Shown here: positions 24,001 through 36,000 of the stretch, one piece after another
How the letters are laid out: each line of letters opens with the position of its first letter
How positions within the stretch are numbered: position 1 is the first letter of the stretch
DNA from: an uncultured bacterium
Lineage (GTDB): Bacteria; Verrucomicrobiota; Verrucomicrobiia; Limisphaerales; UBA8199
Assembly (NCBI GenBank): GCA_963749495.1
Contig: CAVVMW010000004.1
Coordinates: 576,001 to 640,000, forward strand
Reading direction: 5' to 3'
Length of the DNA: 64,000 nucleotides
Program-made: the position numbers

Positions 24001-27000
24001 TTGGCAAGTTCGAGATATTGCTGAGCGAGGAAGAAATTCCCGCCCGCCTCGATGTTGCTGGCGATCTGCTCTGCGGATTCGGCGTGCCGCTTGTTGTCAC
24101 CGGCCTCATGCTCCAGGAGCAAGTCCATCAAGCGAGCCGACAACGCCTCCTTCTCCACGTCCACGCGGCTGTTGATGACATGTTCCACATATGTGACGTA
24201 ACTTGGGAACGGTTCATTCTTCTTGCCCAAGATGCGAGCAAGCCCGAAGCCTCTTCGTAACGACTCGATGTCGCATACCCAATCCTCTGCAACATTGAGC
24301 CTCTTGAAGTTCTCCAAATAGCTTTCGGCGGCGATCTTGGCGGATTTATGATCTTTGCGGGTCACCCAGAGGATATCGGCAAAGCGTGCACGCATCGCGG
24401 CGGTCCGGGTTGTCGGTAACAGGCCGGCTAGCAAATCGAGATCCGAAGAGCCTAGATCTTCGAGCGCCATGCTCCGTCGATCATGCATCACGACAAATGG
24501 AGCAAACGGCGGCTGATCGTCCTCCTCTCGTAAAGCGAGCGATGCCACAGAACCCAAAAAACGGAATACCGACTGGCCCTTCTCATCACCGGCTTTCGCA
24601 AGCTGTGAGGATTTCTCAAATAGCAGTGTGTAATAGTCGAAGCAAATCGGATGTTCGGCAGTTGTGATTGCCGCTTCCCAATCGTAATTCGCGACATCTG
24701 CAAGCGCGACATTGAAGCCGCCGCTGCCCGCAGCTGGTTCTTGTTTCTTTGCGTTCGTTTCCATACGCGATTTGTTTTTACCTCATAATGATGGGCAGCG
24801 CCAGCCCTGACGCCCGCTTCCCCAGTGACCCAGTGGATCTTTGCACTGCCTTGTCATTCTTCACGAACAGATCCCACTCGGGAATGCCGCGCATGTTGCG
24901 GATCAACGCTGTGACCGGCATCTCCTTCGGAGCGCGGGGCGTGGTGAGCAGCTTGAGGCCCGCTTCGTGCGGCAGGCGGTTGCCCTTGCGGGCGTTCACG
25001 TCCCTGCTCGACCACACGAGGTTTTCCCACGTGTGTTTGCCGCCACGCGAACGCGGCAGAACATGGTCGAGGCTGCCTTCGTCGGGGCGCAACGCGCGGC
25101 CGGTGTATTGGCAGCGGTTGCCGTCGCGCTCGCGGATTGTGCGGGCGCAGAGCTTCGGGCGCTTCTTCGGCACCTTGGCGAAGTTCACGGCCACAATGAC
25201 CGCCGGCACGCGGATCGGGCCGCGCACGGTCCGCACCGCGTTATCCTGCGGACGGATCGGCAGCGTGATCCACTCGTCCCACGCCACGGGGCGGATGTGG
25301 TTCTCACCTCCGATCTCCAGGCCGGTCGCAACATTCGTTGCCATTTGGCAAAACGCTTCCTGGGGCGTGCGAATGTTGATTGCCTGCCAGTTGCGGTTCA
25401 GCACCAGCACAATCGACTTGTTCAGTATGTCGTTCATAAAACGTTTCCACGCGGCCAGATCGCTTCTCGCGCTGAGGTGTTTGTTCTTTGTCGGGGCGTG
25501 TGCCCGGAAATTGGCTGCCTCGCCTGGTTTTGCTCCAAGTCCTCCGGTTTCAGGGACCGGCGCGCTCCTGATTACGCCACGAGGCCCGCCGTCGCGCTTT
25601 GTGCTATGGCGCGCCAAGCAATTGGCCCGCCGAGCCGTAGCCGGCAGGCGAAGGCTGGTCGCCCGGGGAGGTTCTGCCCCTCCGATTTCTGGGTGTAGGC
25701 CAGACGTGATCCTATTTCACCACCGAGCGTTTCGAATGCGGAACTCGGAATGCGGGGTGTGGGGTGCCAAACGAGAACGAAGGTCGCTCGTGCGCGCGCC
25801 CCCATTCCGCACTCTGCATTCCGCACTCCGCACTGGGAATGGCTGCCTCGCTTGGATTCGCACCAAGACCGTCGGGGTCAAAGCCCGGCATGCTGCTGTT
25901 ACACCACGAGGCAATGGGTTGGCCTGCCAAGCCGTAGCCCGGAGGGCGAAGGCTGGTGGAGCCGGAGGTAGTTGCAACCTCACCAAACCGGATTAAAAGG
26001 CCGGTGCCGGTCTTCTGTGGCTTCGGCTCCTTGAAATTGGTGCTCGCGGCAGGATTTGCACCTGCACTGGCGACGCTCTCGACGTCGTGTCTCTTCTGTT
26101 GGACTACGCGAGCATTGGAAATGGAGCCTCCAGCCGGTGCTGCCCCGGCACGATTTTCTTACAAAGAAGATCCACAGGCTGCTGCCTGGAGGCGAAATGG
26201 CCTGCCGAGCCGTAGCGCTCGGCGCGAAGGCTGGTCGCAGTCCCCAGTGCTGCCCTGGGCACGGCGGGCGTATGAAACCTGCCTGAGCGCTGGCTCGACT
26301 GCGGTTCTGGCCGACGGCCACGCGATGAAAATGGAGTCCCCACCCGGAATTGCACCGAGCTACCTCCAATACCAATGGAGCGCATCGCTGAAAATGCTTT
26401 GAGGGCCATGAAGCTGGTCGGCGCGAGACGACTTGCACCCGCCTTCGCTCAAGCTATGGCGGGGCAGGCGTCCAAGGCTGACTGATTCTGAGTCAGATGG
26501 ATCTGCTGTTCCCCGTCAGCCACGCGCCGAGAAATTGGCGTCCCTGACCGGCTTCGCTCCGGTGATCTCCTGCATGAGAGGCAGGCATGTTGTCTGGACT
26601 ACACCACAGGGACGGAACTGGCGGGAGTGGAGAGTGCTGCCCTCTCTGCTTCTCGCATGTCAAATTCCGACTGGGTCGCGACTGATGAGCTACGCCCCCG
26701 AAATGGAGCGGGTGAACGGGAATGGCACCTTCGTCTCGGCCTCGGCACAGCCGCATTACTGTTGAACCACCCCCGCAAAATTGGTGTCCCCAGCCGGACT
26801 TCCACCAGCAACCTGGAGTTTAGGACACTCCCGCTCTGTGCTTTGAGCTATGGGGACAAAAGGTCGAACCCCTGGCCGGTCTCTTCCACCGGCTCACACC
26901 CAGCGCTTTCCAAAGTCTCACAGGAAGTGAAAGGGGCTGGGCCGCTCGAGCTACTTCGCGTTCAGGGGTCCAAAATGGCCTGCCAAGCCGTAGCCGACAG

Positions 27001-33000: not shown

Positions 33001-36000
33001 CTGCGTCGCCCGGTTATCGACCGGGTGCTCTGCTCTTGAGCTACAGGACGATGGCGGAAGGCGTCGGTAACGCTCCGACCTCGGCAATGCCGATCCTGTT
33101 TTCGGGACAGGTGCAGCCAGCTTATATCTGCCTGCCTTCCATAAAATGTCAGGGTGGCAAGGTTCACCCCCGCGGCCTCCTGGTTCCGAACTCCCGACGC
33201 GTGGCGACTGCTGGCATTACACCCTGAAATTGGCTGCCAGGGTTGGACTCGCACCAACACCGTGCGGTTTAACAAACCGTCGTGCTACTTTGACACCACC
33301 TGGCAATGGCACTGCCGGCAGGACTTCCACCTGCATCGTTCCGCTTAGAAGGCGGGTGCCTCATGTGTTCGGCCACGGCAGCATTCGAAATGGTCAGCGC
33401 GACAGGAGTTGCACCTGCGATCCCTCGGTCCCAGGCCGAGTGCGTTGGCTGCTACGCTACGCGCTGATTGGCGGACCCGAAGGGAATTGCACCCTCAACC
33501 CTCCCGCAGACAACGGGGCGCTCTGCTTCTTGAGCTACGAGTCCGAAATGGCCTGCCGAGCCGTAGCCGCAGACCTAAACGGGAGCCCGCCTTCGCTAAG
33601 GCTACGGCAGGCACCCTTCGCCATCCGACACGCGGACGGCGAAGGCCGGTGGGAAGTGCTGGTAACGCTCCAGCTCGTCGCTTCCAGCTTCGTTTAACGA
33701 CACCCGATTTACAGTCGGGCAGCCGGATCACTTCCCAGAGATCTGGTAGCGGGGGTGGGAGTTGCGCCCACGGAGGCTGAGCTTATGAGGCTCGCCTGAA
33801 TCTCATTCTCCCCGCAATGAATTGGCCTGCCAAGCCCTAGCCCGGCGGAGCCAAAGCCAGAGCCCACCTTCGCTAAAGCGACGGTGGGCAGCCTCCGCCC
33901 GCCGCGGTGCAGCGGGCGAAGGCTGGTGGAGGACGGCGGGTAACGCTCCCGCTTATGCCTGCTTGCAGGGCAGGCGCATCACTTTTCTGCCACGCCCCCA
34001 GAAATCGAGAAGATTGGCAAGTCGCCCTGGTGCTGCCCCAGGCAAGCTGAGTTTTGGAGACCCGGCTGCACAAGCTGGTGCGCGACTTTTTTTGCATTGT
34101 ATTTTCGGAACGCAGGCGACGTGAGAATCGAAAGCGCATTCCGAACGAAGTTGGTGCGGCCGCCGGGAATTGCACCCGGACTTCCTCCGTGGGGGGGAGG
34201 CATTCTGCTGTTAGATCACAACCGCGGAAATTGAGAGGGCCGGGAGCGTTGCTGCTCCCGGCCCATGCCATTTCAACAAAGAACAAACACCTCTTGCTAT
34301 CTTGCGATACCAACCCACGGTTTCACGGTGGTTCTTTCGGTGTTTTGGGGCACACCTCCTGCGAAGCCCTCAGATTGTAAAATCCGGCTTAACTCACTCG
34401 GCGCGCTTTTTGGCGACCTGTGGGCAAAGCCCACCGGTGGAGAACCTCGGCTCTCCCGCGCCTTCTTGTGTTTTGTGCCAGGCGACATCATCAAGAACGT
34501 CCGTATGCTTCTTCTCACAGTGCTTTGCCTTTCGTTGTCAAGTTCACTTTCTCAGTCGTGCAGGAACAATAAAAAACCCTGCTTCCAGAACTCCTGACAT
34601 AGCCGTCAAACAAAATGTCCGCTTTTTGCCTCACGGCGCTTCCCGAATTGTGTAGCGCAGGCGCAAGCGCGAACCTGGAAAGAGGGTATTGGTCCGGTTG
34701 AGTTCCTCGCAAAGCGCGGCAATCGCCCGCGTGCGGTGCGGCGAACTTAGCGCAGCCAAGCTCACCCGCAACTCCGTTTGGGTGACTTCGAGATCCGCCG
34801 CGCTGGCCAAAGCCGATTGGATCAGAGTTCGACCTTCGTCGCCCACCCTCCGATAGTAGGGCGCGACTAATCTCAGCAAATCGCTCTCGGCTTGGTAAGC
34901 CACGATCTTAATCACATTGGTTAGATGTTTGCGTTCTGGAGCCAGTTTCACCACGGGCTCTTTGGTGATGCTTTGGATCGGCACTCGCCGGGGCACGGCG
35001 GCACGGCGTTTCTCCAGTCGCGCTACACGCTGCCAAGCAGTGTCGATTTGCTGGCCGAGCTTGCCCTGCGCGATCTTGAAGCCGCGCATGGTCTGCTGCT
35101 GCTGCTCCAGGTTGACCAGCGCCTCCAGGCCATATTCGGCCTGCAGCCGAGCCAGTTGGGCATACGCCTGGCGCAATTGGGCGTCCACGGCCGCCCAGAC
35201 CGGGTTGGGAACCTCACGAGTGGGATCATCAGGCACCGCGGCATATTCGACTAACGCGTCCAACGCGTATTCGTCGCACAGGTATTTCAGGAAATTCTCT
35301 TGTCGCCAGCGATCAAACATGTGATAGGCGACTTGGGCAGCGCACAGATCCCGGCGCGAGGTCAGGACGGGGGTTTGGTGCCCGTTGTCCCTCAGGCGGG
35401 TGACCTGCCGCATGCGCAGCTTGCCCTTGAGCAAGCGCACCTCCTGGTCGGCCAGGACGTAGAGGAAGGTCCGTCCCTCACAACGGGTGCGACATGGCCG
35501 GAAGCGCTTGCGGGGGACGCGGCGGCAGCGCCCTTTGCGGTACGTCAGCACGTCAAAGCCCGCGGCCAGGATTTGGAGGAAGAGCTTGGGACTGTAGCCG
35601 CCGCGATCAAAGGCTACGGTGATGCGTCGTTTGCCCACCAAGCTGCGCACCTGCTCCAGGATGCCGGGCAGCATCTTGACCAAGCCGGCGTTAGCCTGTG
35701 CCGTGACGACAAAGAGCGGATCGCCGCACGTGTCGTTGACCCAATAGTCCGAAGTGGCCGGCACCGAGAGGCGCATCTGAGCCACGTGGGCCTTGGGCAG
35801 ACGGTGCTTGCCGTGGTAAACCCGCACGTGGCCATCCACGTAGAGGAAACCCAAGGCGGCTCCGCGCAAGGCGACCCGTTGCTGGGCCAGAGCCAGGCCA
35901 AACTGCGCGGCGCGTCCGGTGGCCGCCAGGCAGGCCAGTTTCCGCCGCAGCGTTTTGACTTCGGGCGCCCGGTCCAAGCCCAGCACACGCCCCAAGTCTT

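Follow-up and report, generated by a model that had tools for sequence, protein, structure and literature searches.

The window analysed here, a 64,000-nt stretch of contig C4 from an uncultured soil-type Verrucomicrobium, carries 23 co-oriented tRNA genes on its minus strand (25515-34225) together with an intact RtcB gene, a gene for an SPFH protein and, at the end, an HNH gene. The same genome has five further islands, paralogous to this one, on different contigs. The features of the window copy, from upstream to downstream, are listed below.

37261..37360, minus: promoter region of the module, conserved, aligned with the C5, C15, C21 and C25 copies
37093..37260, minus: leader ORF of 55 codons plus TGA (MKTCMNIS...LLVGR*)
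37041..37062, minus: 5' strand and loop of a terminator, CCCTGCTTACC GTAAC GGAAGC, separated from the 3' strand by an insertion sequence (IS)
34588..37040, minus: the IS, inside the terminator; transposase ORF 34631-36943, 770 aa
34573..34587, minus: 3' strand of the terminator and U run, GAAGCAGGGTTTTTT
34274..34369, minus: elB, a 96-nt conserved structured leader RNA directly upstream of the first tRNA
32805..34225, minus: first tRNA block, Gly-CCC (34155-34225), Ala-UGC, Asp-GUC, Pro-UGG, Arg-UCU (33310-33382), Asn-GUU, Ile-GAU, Phe-GAA; Gly-CCC and Arg-UCU from Rfam, with anticodons from a low-threshold ARAGORN run
31544..32674, minus: RtcB-family RNA ligase, 376 aa, full length, RtcB2 ('release_rtcB') type
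30896..31363, minus: tRNA block Arg-GCG, Thr-CGU, His-GUG (His-GUG, 30896-30966, from Rfam, anticodon likewise)
30974-31208: 33-nt tandem repeat, 7.1 copies, beginning at the CCA end of tRNA-Thr
29818..30615, minus: SPFH/Band 7 protein, 265 aa (Pfam Band_7, E 1.6e-27)
29689..29763, minus: tRNA-Cys(GCA), G55 type, from both ARAGORN and Rfam
29377..29445, minus: tRNA-like element with a canonical GGTTCAACTCC T arm and without a D arm
25515..27514, minus: last tRNA block, Leu-CAG, Leu-UAA, Leu-CAA, class II tRNA-UAU, Arg-CCU, Glu-CUC, Thr-GGU, Leu-GAG, Gln-UUG and two Rfam-only tRNAs (25659-25729 and 25515-25586)
24778..25437, minus: HNH nuclease, 219 aa with the start assigned to MNDILNK, downstream of the last tRNA

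In the window ARAGORN predicted 18 tRNA genes, each on the minus strand, between 25840 and 33999, and Rfam RF00005 gave 20 matches above gathering (38.4-59 bits), five of which (25515, 25659, 30896, 33310 and 34155) were without an ARAGORN call, bringing the union to 23. Among the 126 ARAGORN calls of the whole genome, 55 were within the six arrays and 71 outside them, 54-55 of the latter being canonical with CCA. With Rfam-only tRNAs included, the islands held 23 (C4), 11 (C5), 22 (C7), 10 (C15), 7 (C21) and 7 (C25) tRNAs, about 80 in total. The first-pass annotation had placed 74 of 146 tRNAs in the arrays, a proportion that was roughly matched (about 80 array tRNAs against 71 non-array ARAGORN calls), so that about half or more lie in the islands. 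The two Ile-UAU genes it had reported (C4:603042 and C7:36237, in contig coordinates) were recovered; the window gene (27042-27134, minus) belongs to class II, is conserved and has a long variable arm, so that its Ile identity is only putative. Leu-CAG, Leu-UAA and Leu-CAA of the last block are 75-76 nt long and have no long variable arm. The tRNA-like element scored 25.8 bits with the tRNA-Sec model, below gathering (E 0.0044 in a 331-nt search), is kept in the C5 and C15 islands and had BLASTn matches at C5:325972, C15:358439 and C4:508026.

Gene content and BLASTn bore out the proposal that one module of HNH gene, tRNA array and RNA-repair genes is present at all six loci in diverged form, the C4 island matching those of C5, C7, C15, C21 and C25 in blocks of 67-96% identity. 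The module has 7-23 co-oriented supernumerary tRNA genes with RNA-repair genes embedded, an RtcB2-type ligase in the window and Ro60 or an RNA ligase with a kinase in other copies. The Ro60 vWA fragment annotated in C5 and the RNA ligase with HD/AAA_33 kinase in C7 were found again, and foreign genes (beta-lactamase family, transposases) also occur inside islands. Contamination had been suggested as a possible source of part of the multiplicity; the tetranucleotide profiles of the six island contigs correlate with the genome mean at 0.995 or more. The range originally given (24778-34225) was too short, as the module extends upstream to about window 37360. Read directly from the sequence, its order begins with the promoter and the leader ORF, the latter with its terminator and antiterminator, followed by the 96-nt leader RNA, the tRNA array and the terminal PLMP-HNH gene. 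In the window it is split by the 2.45-kb IS, which is bordered on both sides by a duplicated GAAGC, encodes a transposase with Pfam Transposase_29 and HTH matches, and has flanks that are contiguous in C5, C15, C21 and C25. Copies 99.6-99.8% identical to it were detected in C10 (2) and C17 and at C4:390789 and C5:138646, joining these four contigs, which also bears on the matter of contamination. Because the IS cuts the promoter and leader off the array, the window copy is probably deregulated or silent.

The promoter has a -35 box TGGACA at 37296-37301 and a -10 box that reads GATAGT or GATAAG in the paralogues and is degenerate in the window (GCTAAA). A conserved block, GATATTTGGATTTAAGATA, lies upstream of it, and the C21 copy has a promoter-like site TGGACA-16-GATAGT with TG. 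The conserved element at the promoter region, elA, was recovered from 23 of 86 sources, many loci ending before it, and was not found in the C7 island. The last codons and stop of the leader ORF, GGTAGGCAGGTGA (37093-37105), form the antiterminator strand, which copies the 3' strand of the downstream intrinsic terminator. The ORF was open in 22 of 22 copies, with 52-57 codons and a constant stop position, and its frame contained 0 stops, where the two alternative frames had 90 and 68. In 21 copies the antiterminator pairing amounted to -14 to -23 kcal/mol and the terminator, followed by a U run, to -13.8 to -19.4 kcal/mol, the two energies being similar in all 21. An attenuator detector gave only two unrelated matches in 85 loci (1.15 Mb, both strands). 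Two loci of another family (L112 and L114) have an attenuator of like design whose helix letters and peptide differ. We regard leader and terminator as a leader-peptide attenuator, and a small leader gene sensing stalled ribosomes seems to switch the island on. Alternatively, ORF and terminator could together make up a small independent gene, with the array transcribed from a second promoter; leader change by codon position was 0.21, 0.24 and 0.26, only slightly higher at the third, and no run of one regulatory codon was present in the leader. The elB RNA was 83-100% identical in 31 sources, stood upstream of the array every time, showed consensus hairpins in the alignment and matched no Rfam family at E<=1.

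The window RtcB matched NCBIfam NF007153 with 490.9 bits (cut-off 407), TIGR03073 with 425.6 bits, Pfam RtcB and PDB relatives at E 1e-32, and no PrfH was found above cut-off in the genome. RtcB was indeed present in C4, C5, C15 and C25, as annotated, but is full length only in C4, being split in C5 (365 + 95 aa) and reduced to pieces of 241 aa (C15) and 202 aa (C25). The SPFH protein recurs inside arrays of relatives, with a homologue cluster in 21 sources. The HNH nuclease matched Pfam HNH_4, HNH_5 and HNH and, partially, NCBIfam models of Cas9d, Cas9 and IscB. Its build is IshB-like, with a PLMP-like N domain and a Cas9/IscB-type HNH domain; structure models had pLDDT values of 82.9 and 89.0, the VIA Z value was 9.7 for the HNH part, and Z values of 5.5-4.0 were obtained against five IsrB/IscB N-terminal domains. 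Relatives at 58-85% identity were identified in 80 loci. The location of this gene at one array end could be made specific: it is the 3' end, in the window and in the 71 of the 80 related loci that have tRNA calls. Four islands had been said to encode it, which is true of C4, C7 and C21, whereas the C15 copy matched residues 47-196 only and has one in-frame TGA; C5 has a degenerate remnant.

As previously noted, array tRNAs score lower against the tRNA model than core tRNAs (32.9-61.2 bits against about 52-79 bits). This is due to a systematic G18A/U55G change of the elbow, and decay into pseudogenes was rejected as the explanation of the scores. Nearly all spare tRNAs swap the near-universal contact G18-U55 for A18-G55, in a register confirmed by Infernal alignment. 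By ARAGORN, G55 (T loop U-G-C-R-A) occurs in 54 of the 55 array tRNAs of this genome and in 0 of the 71 non-array calls. The 80 related loci contributed 580 tRNAs, 544 with G55 and 36 with U55; the base before G19 was A in 417 of the former and G in 26 of the latter, and D-loop GG was seen in 33 against 30, respectively. A further swap, A54/U58, was found in 66 cases on the G55 background. Array tRNAs retain the cloverleaf and G19-C56 as well as CCA and discriminators that match the isotype. The 544 G55 tRNAs of relatives keep U8 (500), U33 (488), G53-C61 (542), CCA (507) and C56 (459), and array discriminators track the anticodon (Leu A 112/112, Cys U 35/35, Asn G 21/21). Stems covary between copies, Rfam scores are above gathering, and the anticodons cover 17-18 amino acids, with a skew to Leu, Arg, Gln, Thr and Cys. 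Judged from their sequences, the array tRNAs look functional.

The 1.4-kb block of HNH gene and first tRNAs, earlier reported from 18 of 30 other genomes of the family, matched 24 of 44 at E<=1e-10. The module is patchily distributed, occurring in 84 of the 301 genomes of the order and in 24 of the 44 family members. Other families have G55 arrays too, and the A18/G55 design also occurs on large viral contigs (41-50% G+C), G55 tRNAs being present on 6 of 12 viral loci examined. Arrays of distant lineages mix U55/GG and G55/AG tRNAs (L077-L084, L109-L111, viral L121 and L122). Weak support comes from metatranscriptome contigs of four runs from four studies, which match tRNA parts and elB with 90-99% likeness; these contigs come from relatives and may hold DNA. 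Neither an integrase nor flanking repeats were found; mobility of the module is supported indirectly by its patchy distribution and by relatives on phages and plasmids.

On this evidence, the C4 island is a probably mobile island of spare tRNAs, RNA repair and an HNH nuclease, present in six copies and belonging to a known kind, the long tRNA arrays (L-arrays, tRNA array units), for which the link of HNH and rtcB is already published. We think it rather probable that, like its counterparts in cyanobacteria, mycobacteria and large phages, it is a long tRNA array, here in several copies and spread horizontally, and that it works as follows. During normal translation, a ribosome at the leader stop would cover the antiterminator strand, the terminator would form and the array would stay silent. 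Were elongation impaired, by tRNA depletion, by tRNA cleavage (anticodon nucleases, toxins) or by antibiotics, the ribosome would stall earlier, the antiterminator would pair with the terminator 5' strand and transcription would enter the tRNAs and RtcB. The spare tRNAs would then act as chargeable isoacceptors that restock or buffer the tRNA pool, and RtcB would reseal cut RNA. The rebuilt elbow combines A18 and G55, a subclass also combining A54 and U58, and retains G19-C56. By our reasoning G55-C56-R57-A58 can form a GNRA-like turn; the L shape would thus probably be kept, while the universal GG/T-Psi-C signature, by which T-loop-directed enzymes or nucleases recognize tRNAs, would be lost, be this a selected benefit or a locked-in accident. 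Pan et al. (2006), cited in PMC4810234, reportedly found the 18-55 contact to be important for fast translocation; on ribosomes, therefore, rebuilt elbows might perform poorly. The HNH protein would most likely spread or maintain the element as a homing-type DNA nickase.

It is possible, although we doubt it, that the elbow is a neutral, epistatically locked state of a founder array (one origin followed by duplication, anticodon remoulding or gene conversion) in an otherwise ordinary L-array. Between array tRNAs of different isotypes the likeness (mean best 72%) is as high as between array tRNAs and core isoacceptors (mean 66%), and the best core match had the same isotype in only 18 of 50; being no closer to core isoacceptors than to each other, they may have inherited G55 from one ancestor without selection. 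Reversion of one partner alone would break the pair, and the mixed arrays of distant lineages also fit. However, the state persists in 544 of 580 tRNAs, in many genera, other families and viral contigs of 41-50% G+C, the A54/U58 swap arose on the same background, and in four further hosts or phages, arrays that carry this HNH family yielded one G55 call in 90. We consider it unlikely that the islands are decaying remnants of phage or mobile-element arrays, selfish cargo kept by the HNH gene with no host role and many tRNAs becoming pseudogenes. Several copies are decaying, with RtcB broken in three of four islands and intact in one, HNH degenerate in C5 and possibly broken in C15, an IS in the window terminator and foreign genes inside; array sizes (7 to 23) and distribution are uneven, and viral contigs bear the same HNH family and G55 tRNAs. 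Yet cloverleaf, CCA, U8, U33, G53-C61 and isotype-matched discriminators are preserved in hundreds of array tRNAs from 71 loci of different species, all 22 leader ORFs are open, and HNH is 58-85% identical across species. Such conservation implies selection on the RNAs themselves, which could favour the element and not the host.

Still less probable, in our judgement, is that the array RNAs are mainly decoys or sponges for tRNA-directed nucleases or tRNA-binding factors, or non-ribosomal substrates, with an elbow that avoids the ribosome and housekeeping enzymes. The universal 18-55 contact is altered in 54 of 55 array tRNAs, the isotypes are skewed, and Ro60, which binds tRNA-like Y RNAs, recurs in arrays; the authors of the Anabaena work (PMC8421152) also raised a sponge function for that array. 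Against this, the anticodons stand for 17-18 amino acids, the discriminators match them and CCA is encoded, and G19-C56 (C56 in 459 of 544), a platform used by the ribosome and RNase P according to PMC4810234, is retained. PMC8421152 further states that 23 of 26 Anabaena array tRNAs are charged and in polysome fractions, though these have canonical elbows.

The reading as a long tRNA array of spare, chargeable tRNAs agrees with L-arrays as characterized in PMC8421152, with a conserved HNH, rtcB nearby and induction by translation inhibitors. HNH relatives also lie inside tRNA arrays of the Tunturiibacter phage Tunturi_5, where RtcB and a CCA enzyme occur as well, of the cyanophage S-CRM01 and of a Mycolicibacterium plasmid. 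In Anabaena the HNH gene, to which the window HNH is 46% identical over the core, is directly upstream of the trn array, whose tRNAs, unlike the G55 arrays of the window, have canonical elbows. Relative to the literature searched, the A18/G55 elbow design, the leader-peptide attenuator and the conserved class II tRNA with anticodon UAU go beyond what is described for these systems.

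The source genome bin comprises 11.37 Mb in 31 contigs (63% G+C, 88% complete, 5.8% contaminated). ARAGORN identified 18 tRNA genes in the window, all on the minus strand (25840-33999), and RF00005 gave 20 matches above its gathering threshold of 29 (38.4-59 bits), five of which were new beyond ARAGORN. The union of both searches contains 23 tRNA genes, running from 34225 down to 25515, and the island was found to be arranged as listed below.

Features of the island in the window, in tRNA direction
34588-37040: insertion sequence (IS) of 2.45 kb, with its transposase at 34631-36943 (770-aa Transposase_29/HTH protein; blastn and Pfam)
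Minus strand: eight tRNA genes (ARAGORN and Rfam)
31544-32674, minus strand: intact RtcB of 376 aa, "RtcB2" type (NCBIfam NF007153, 490.9 bits, and TIGR03073)
Between RtcB and the SPFH/Band 7 gene: three tRNA genes
29818-30615: SPFH/Band 7 gene
Next in order: tRNA-Cys gene, followed by about 2 kb without conserved genes
Between this gap and the HNH gene: eleven tRNA genes
24778-25437: HNH gene, at the end of the array

Position 24778, at which the first-pass annotation opened the island, is the stop of the HNH gene. Immediately downstream of it a DUF7380 protein is encoded (23874-24764, minus strand, E 5e-40), which was placed probably outside the module because it is not among the recurring proteins of related loci. 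The flanks (14000-24700 and 37000-48000) showed no collinear match in three family genomes, so that the borders could not be defined by synteny. The RtcB2 identity is supported by scores above the cut-offs (407 for NF007153; 425.6 against 271.8 bits for TIGR03073), and a search of the 88% complete genome for its partner PrfH returned no TIGR03072 match above cut-off (best 113.8 against 166.65 bits). The unconserved stretch of about 2 kb inside the array (27515-29300) has no counterpart in the paralogues or in RNA contigs and holds an ORF (28090-29064, plus strand) with weak matches to chain-length determinants (GNVR/Wzz); it is probably a foreign insertion. Tandem repeats of 33 nt (31 nt) were located at 26977-27044 (2.1 copies), 30974-31208 (7.1) and 32883-32979 (3.1), each beginning at the CCA end of a tRNA (UAU, Thr-CGU and Ile-GAU) and filling the spacer up to the next one; similar units also occur on contigs C1, C10 and C21.

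Across the whole genome ARAGORN made 126 calls, 55 within six arrays and 71 elsewhere, and 54-55 of the latter are canonical with CCA. When Rfam-only matches are included, the arrays hold 23, 11, 22, 10, 7 and 7 genes (about 80), against the 71 other calls. The first-pass observation that about half of the tRNA genes lie in islands stands. The window island, on contig C4, shares blastn blocks of 67-96% identity with those on C5, C7, C15, C21 and C25, in agreement with the proposal of the same annotation that the six loci are copies of one HNH, tRNA array and RNA-repair module. The genes that it listed are present, but the copies are unequal: RtcB is full length in C4 only, reduced to pieces in C15 and C25, and split in C5, where it is accompanied by a Ro60 vWA fragment, a GIY-YIG ORF and a degenerate HNH gene. 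A beta-lactamase-family gene is located within the C21 array, and the HNH gene of C7 is followed by genes for an RNA ligase (PF09414) and for an HD/AAA_33 kinase. With 23 genes in 8.7 kb and 22 in 5.1 kb, respectively, C4 and C7 are dense arrays, and the other four islands, of 7-11 genes each, fall short of the 20-gene minimum for tRNA array units (20 or more genes at a density of 2 or more per kb; Tran et al. 2016, PMC4758250). About 55 canonical tRNAs outside the arrays form the core set. It covers the anticodons of the arrays with the single exception of UAU, which had already been reported as missing from it, and is not duplicated as a whole in the genome. Tetranucleotide correlation of the island contigs with the genome mean is at least 0.995 and they have near-identical IS copies in common; they look like a single organism. 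The GIY-YIG ORF of the C5 island (93 aa; locus L001, 8031-8312, minus strand) lies between array tRNAs and represents a second type of small-nuclease gene in arrays. Two Rfam Acido-Lenti-1 RNA motifs also lie between tRNA genes of that island (L001 9473-9519, minus strand, and 9632-9678, plus strand; C5:325473-325678), at 38.3 and 44.7 bits against a gathering threshold of 37.

The array tRNAs differ from the core set mainly in the elbow. In all six islands the T loop reads U-G-C-R-A in place of U-U-C-R-A, and the D loop has A-G at the position of G18-G19, as in tRNA-Gln (AACAGCA in the array, AAUGGUA in the core); Infernal alignment to RF00005 backs this register (GGUGCGAAUCC against GGUUCGAAUCC). 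G55 is present in 54 of the 55 array tRNAs of the genome and in none of the 71 other calls, position 18 is A in 42 of these 54, and G19 and C56 are mostly kept. The pattern recurs in 80 related loci, 71 of which have tRNA calls (582 in total, 577 on the HNH strand): 544 tRNAs with 7-nt loops are of the G55 type and 36 of the canonical U55 type. A D-loop GG is found in 33/544 of the former against 30/36 of the latter, and the base preceding G19 is A in 417/544 and G in 26/36, respectively. In 66 array cases U54-A58 is swapped to A54-U58, a change absent from the core.

Array tRNAs thus do not conform to the universal set of elbow nucleotides (G18, G19, U54, U55, C56). The G55 tRNAs keep U8 (500/544), U33 (488/544), a purine at 37 (526/544), G53-C61 (542/544), C56 (459/544) and an encoded CCA (507/544), and their discriminators track the anticodon as in the core (A in 112/112 Leu, U in 35/35 Cys, G in 21/21 Asn and 18/19 Asp). 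From this conservation the array tRNAs appear to be a maintained alternative design and not decayed genes, and the isotype-matched discriminators together with the encoded CCA suggest, indirectly, that they may be charged and decode. The lower scores against the tRNA model noted in the first-pass annotation are accounted for by the elbow change.

The G55 type is not confined to the studied order. In two complete genomes of another family (G189 and G387), arrays of 16-25 tRNAs (L112-L114) have G55 in 15/16, 21/22 and 25/25 cases and include long-arm Leu, Tyr, Trp and Met tRNAs. Among 12 IMG/VR loci retrieved by a motif of the UAU tRNA described below, six have G55 tRNAs (18/19 in L123, 7/7 in L128), two have HNH relatives of 39-42% identity, and L128 encodes a Ro-like RNA-binding protein. 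G55 was absent from arrays that carry the same HNH family, in 0/25 calls of phage Tunturi_5, 0/14 of cyanophage S-CRM01 and 0/27 of a Mycolicibacterium plasmid, and elbows of the Anabaena array are canonical in 23/24 (TTC with GG). Identity comparison of array and core tRNAs gave no preference between single and independent origins of the G55 tRNAs. G18 is described as pairing with a "universally conserved" Psi55, and G19-C56 as the platform that the ribosome, RNase P and T-boxes recognize (PMC4810234); by our own reasoning G55-C56-R57-A58 could form a GNRA-like turn. No description of A18/G55 tRNAs was found in the literature searched, which lay mostly outside subscription journals.

Several array tRNAs are unusual in further respects. 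Leu tRNAs of arrays in the order are short (73-77 nt, with one exception among 112; core Leu tRNAs have 84-88 nt), as they also are in Anabaena, phage and plasmid arrays, and Ser, Tyr, Trp and Met are nearly absent (2, 0, 0 and 1 of about 600). The gene called Ile-UAU encodes a class II tRNA of 92-93 nt. Its acceptor stem has 7 bp, its D loop 5 nt (AAAGA) and its variable arm 5 bp; the T loop reads AGCGTTA, and A73 and CCA are present. Besides two copies in the studied genome, 25 G55 copies exist in relatives, with invariant UAU and compensating changes in the acceptor and anticodon stems. The leucyl-tRNA synthetase (LeuRS) of bacteria ignores the anticodon. Since a nematode tRNA-Ile(UAU) with a long variable arm is, in addition, leucylated in vitro (PMC3333845, PMC4300185), charging with isoleucine is not to be assumed, and the class II UAU tRNA is a possible candidate for a recoding tRNA. 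A long arm where it is normally missing was observed a second time in array tRNA-Thr (CGU or UGU; 86-88 nt, with an extra variable-arm hairpin) of L012, L030, L034, L044, L045, L047, L052, L056, L061 and L072. On C21 (locus L004), ARAGORN reports a tRNA with the four-base anticodon CGAG (C21:703643-703719), 96% identical to tRNA-Leu(GAG) of C4, which is either a frameshift-suppressor-like variant with an 8-nt anticodon loop or a fresh pseudogene. A tRNA-like element was located at 29377-29445 (minus strand) of the window and at C5:325972-326099, C15:358439-358561 and C4:508026-508119. It combines a long acceptor-like stem and an anticodon-like hairpin with a T arm of canonical GGTTCAACTCC sequence, lacks a D arm, scores 25.8 bits with the tRNA-Sec model (below gathering), and is covered at high depth in metatranscriptome contigs. 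Because the C5 copy lies about 360 nt from the Ro60 fragment, the element might be a Y-RNA-like partner.

The IS of the window has copies of 99.6-99.8% identity at C10:18342, C10:685076, C17:6183, C4:390789 and C5:138646, and a relative of 75% identity at C21:727658; it has been active recently. Its flanks are contiguous in C5, C15, C21 and C25, and the module thus extends to about 37360. Alignment of paralogues and relatives revealed in this region a conserved upstream block with a promoter-like site, TGGACA-16-(TG)GATAGT, and a leader ORF of 52-57 codons (MKTCMNIS...VSR, then stop). About 25 nt past the ORF lies an intrinsic terminator (CCCTGCTTACC, loop, GTAAGCAGGG, U6-7; -13.8 to -19.4 kcal/mol), the 3' strand of which is repeated in the final codons and stop of the ORF (GGTAAGCAGGTAA). 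This GGTAAGCAGGTAA stretch can pair with the 5' strand of the terminator (-14 to -23 kcal/mol), and a terminator with a mutually exclusive antiterminator overlapping the ORF end is present in 21/21 copies. Since the window IS sits within the terminator, with GAAGC duplicated on both sides, the window array is severed from its promoter and leader.

This layout is that of a predicted leader-peptide attenuator. A ribosome at the leader stop would cover the antiterminator, so that the terminator could form; a ribosome stalled earlier would leave the antiterminator free and permit read-through into the array. The leader frame is open in 22/22 copies and has indels in threes; it contains no stops, and the alternative frames contain 90 and 68. 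Variability differs little among codon positions (0.21, 0.24 and 0.26), which suggests that the peptide is weakly constrained while its frame is kept. Locus L114, from another family, has a 55-codon ORF (...SPGSGVT, then stop) with GGAAGTGG just ahead of the stop, followed by CCCACTTCC-loop-GGAAGTGGG-T7, and L112 is built likewise; both the letters and the peptide differ from those of the studied family. A detector for ORF ends that copy a terminator arm recovered the leader in 20 related loci and, over 85 loci (1.15 Mb, both strands), gave only two unrelated hits. The kept frame, the same design in L112 and L114 and the specificity of the detector strengthen the attenuator reading. Leader peptides lack a run of one regulatory codon, and the attenuator, if real, would be a general elongation sensor. 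The Anabaena operator motif was found upstream of the array in L008 and once in L007, both on the same plasmid, and in 0 of the other 129 loci, being absent from all verrucomicrobial ones. No paper on attenuators ahead of tRNA arrays was found in the literature searched. Between the terminator and the first tRNA lies a conserved leader RNA of 96 nt, here termed elB, which is 83-100% identical in 31 sources and has three hairpins and two Shine-Dalgarno-like boxes. Rfam searches with the leader, elB and the tRNA-like element returned no family at threshold.

The HNH protein was modelled with AlphaFold at a pLDDT of 82.9 for the whole protein and 89.0 for residues 1-92. Its HNH domain is of the Cas9/IscB type (VIA Z 9.7, rmsd 3.1 over 80 residues to 9k32_A), with partial NCBIfam matches to Cas9d, Cas9 and IscB. 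For the N domain the five best VIA matches are N-terminal (PLMP) domains of IsrB/IscB (Z 5.5-4.0 over 50-53 residues; next unrelated match Z 3.1), and a Foldseek search of the PDB with the full model matched the HNH domain only. Three of the four zinc cysteines are lost in array copies and kept in a housekeeping-like paralogue (G000:C1:242933-243502 and L096-L108; 35-44% identity, about 215 aa, CxxC...CxxC). This paralogue is common in the phylum, usually occurs once per genome in many Verrucomicrobiota (in two families, 35/35 and 23/26 genomes have it), and is not a neighbour of tRNA arrays. The array protein would most simply be a homing or maintenance nickase; an RNA partner is speculation.

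With the HNH protein as query, 80 loci were recovered (58-85% identity). Almost all belong to Verrucomicrobiota bins (titled Verrucomicrobiia, Limisphaerales or Pedosphaera), and a few contigs to bins named for other phyla. Within the order, the array-type HNH (E<=1e-60) is present in 84/301 genomes and 54/143 genera, usually as one copy and at most three per genome, against four in the studied genome. The block of 1.4 kb with HNH and the first tRNAs, previously noted as widespread in the family, was detected in 24/44 other family genomes (E<=1e-10). HNH is present in 85/86 sources and RtcB in 39. HNH copies of 46-56% identity stand at the 3' end of arrays in two other families (L109-L114). 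This patchy distribution, along with the relatives carried by phages, plasmids and viral contigs, points to horizontal spread; a single-protein scan of viral contigs found no close HNH relatives, and the elB pattern had 0 matches among them. With 6/79 inner branches starred, the HNH tree is poorly resolved. It separates the C4/C21 copies from the C7/C15 copies but shows no more than this, and indicates no donor or order of events.

Metatranscriptome contigs from four runs in four studies cover elB, HNH, the tRNA portions and some of RtcB, with a likeness of 90-99%. This shows the presence of the island in RNA libraries, not regulated transcription, and many of the contigs were judged to come from relatives because spacers are skipped. 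Zero cover at 28000-29000 of the window is not informative on expression.

The elbow change may serve to evade a factor directed at the elbow or to keep the tRNAs off ribosomes or enzymes, or it may be a neutral state that became locked in. We regard as a long shot the fuller reading that the island is an emergency translation kit, in which its own leader peptide would sense ribosome stalling, a full set of A18-G55 tRNAs would then be supplied that escape a factor aimed at the universal T-Psi-C/GG elbow (such as a T-loop nuclease or another toxin or enzyme that reads the elbow), the UAU tRNA would be charged by LeuRS so that AUA is read as leucine in stress, and the PLMP-HNH protein may use an island RNA as partner. 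Few nucleotides in biology are as conserved as G18 and U55 (the latter as pseudouridine). In many bacterial species and on large viral contigs, A18-G55 takes the place of this contact in hundreds of tRNA genes that are well formed in other respects, and they offer a natural test of its purpose in folding, TruB/TrmA modification, translocation and nuclease recognition. The change suggests a way for mobile tRNA sets to differ from, or outlast, housekeeping tRNAs. The attenuator, if real, would link ribosome stalling directly to the supply of spare tRNAs, and as a prediction it offers a mechanism for the induction of cyanobacterial arrays by "translational stress", while the class II UAU tRNA raises the possibility of conditional recoding.

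L-arrays have been described as supernumerary tRNAs spread by transfer, with Verrucomicrobia among the phyla listed, a conserved HNH gene beside the cyanobacterial arrays, and rtcB and dpsA nearby; in Anabaena the array is induced by translation inhibitors and 23/26 of its tRNAs are charged in vivo (Santamaria-Gomez et al. 2021, PMC8421152). No paper describing verrucomicrobial tRNA arrays was found in the literature searched; the supplements of PMC8421152 may list some. The trn operon of Anabaena (Nostoc) PCC 7120 is located within the last 6 kb of pCC7120delta, the first 50 kb of which are without tRNA calls. It resembles the present islands in being a long same-strand supernumerary array with a linked HNH gene (46% identity over the core) and rtcB nearby, in its short tRNA-Leu (75-78 nt, no long variable arm) and in its patchy, transfer-like spread. 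However, HNH lies directly upstream of the array there and at the array 3' end here, elbows are canonical there and A18/G55 here, a repressor on direct repeats stands in place of the predicted attenuator, and the studied genome has six copies.

Dense arrays on mobile DNA with internal HNH genes are also known as the tRNA array units of Mycobacterium and Acidithiobacillus and as the tRNA clusters of phages (Tran et al. 2016, PMC4758250; Morgado and Vicente 2018, PMC5966550). Full-length HNH relatives of 28-33% identity are located inside the arrays of Tunturiibacter phage Tunturi_5, which also has RtcB and a CCA-adding enzyme nearby, of S-CRM01 and of the Mycolicibacterium plasmid. None of the 66 calls in these three records is G55, and the arrays are carried on plasmids or phages, not as six chromosomal copies. 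The link of HNH, array and RtcB is thus not new, being reported for L-arrays and having relatives in phage and plasmid arrays.

Leader-peptide attenuators of the trp, his and pheL type have a short upstream ORF, an intrinsic terminator and alternative pairing. The predicted attenuator shares the upstream ORF, the terminator and the alternative pairing, with the terminator 5' strand pairing across the ORF end, but its ORF of 52-57 codons is longer, has no regulatory-codon run and is predicted to govern tRNA genes instead of an amino-acid operon. IshB (PMC11610941) is similar to the HNH protein in size (about 190-220 aa) and in the Cas9/IscB-type HNH, and its PLMP domain may have a counterpart in the N domain; in contrast, no IS200/605 context or omega RNA was noticed in the loci, although no search was aimed at them, the Z of the N domain is modest, and the array copies are short of three zinc cysteines. 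The nematode nev-tRNA-Ile(UAU) (Hamashima et al. 2012, PMC3333845; PMC4300185) is also class II, with UAU and with A73 as in tRNA-Leu, whereas the UAU tRNA here is bacterial or phage, with a T loop of the G55 type and 5 nt in the D loop. Taken together, the islands belong to a known kind of element, with a tRNA design so far undescribed, a possible recoding tRNA and a predicted ribosome-sensing switch.
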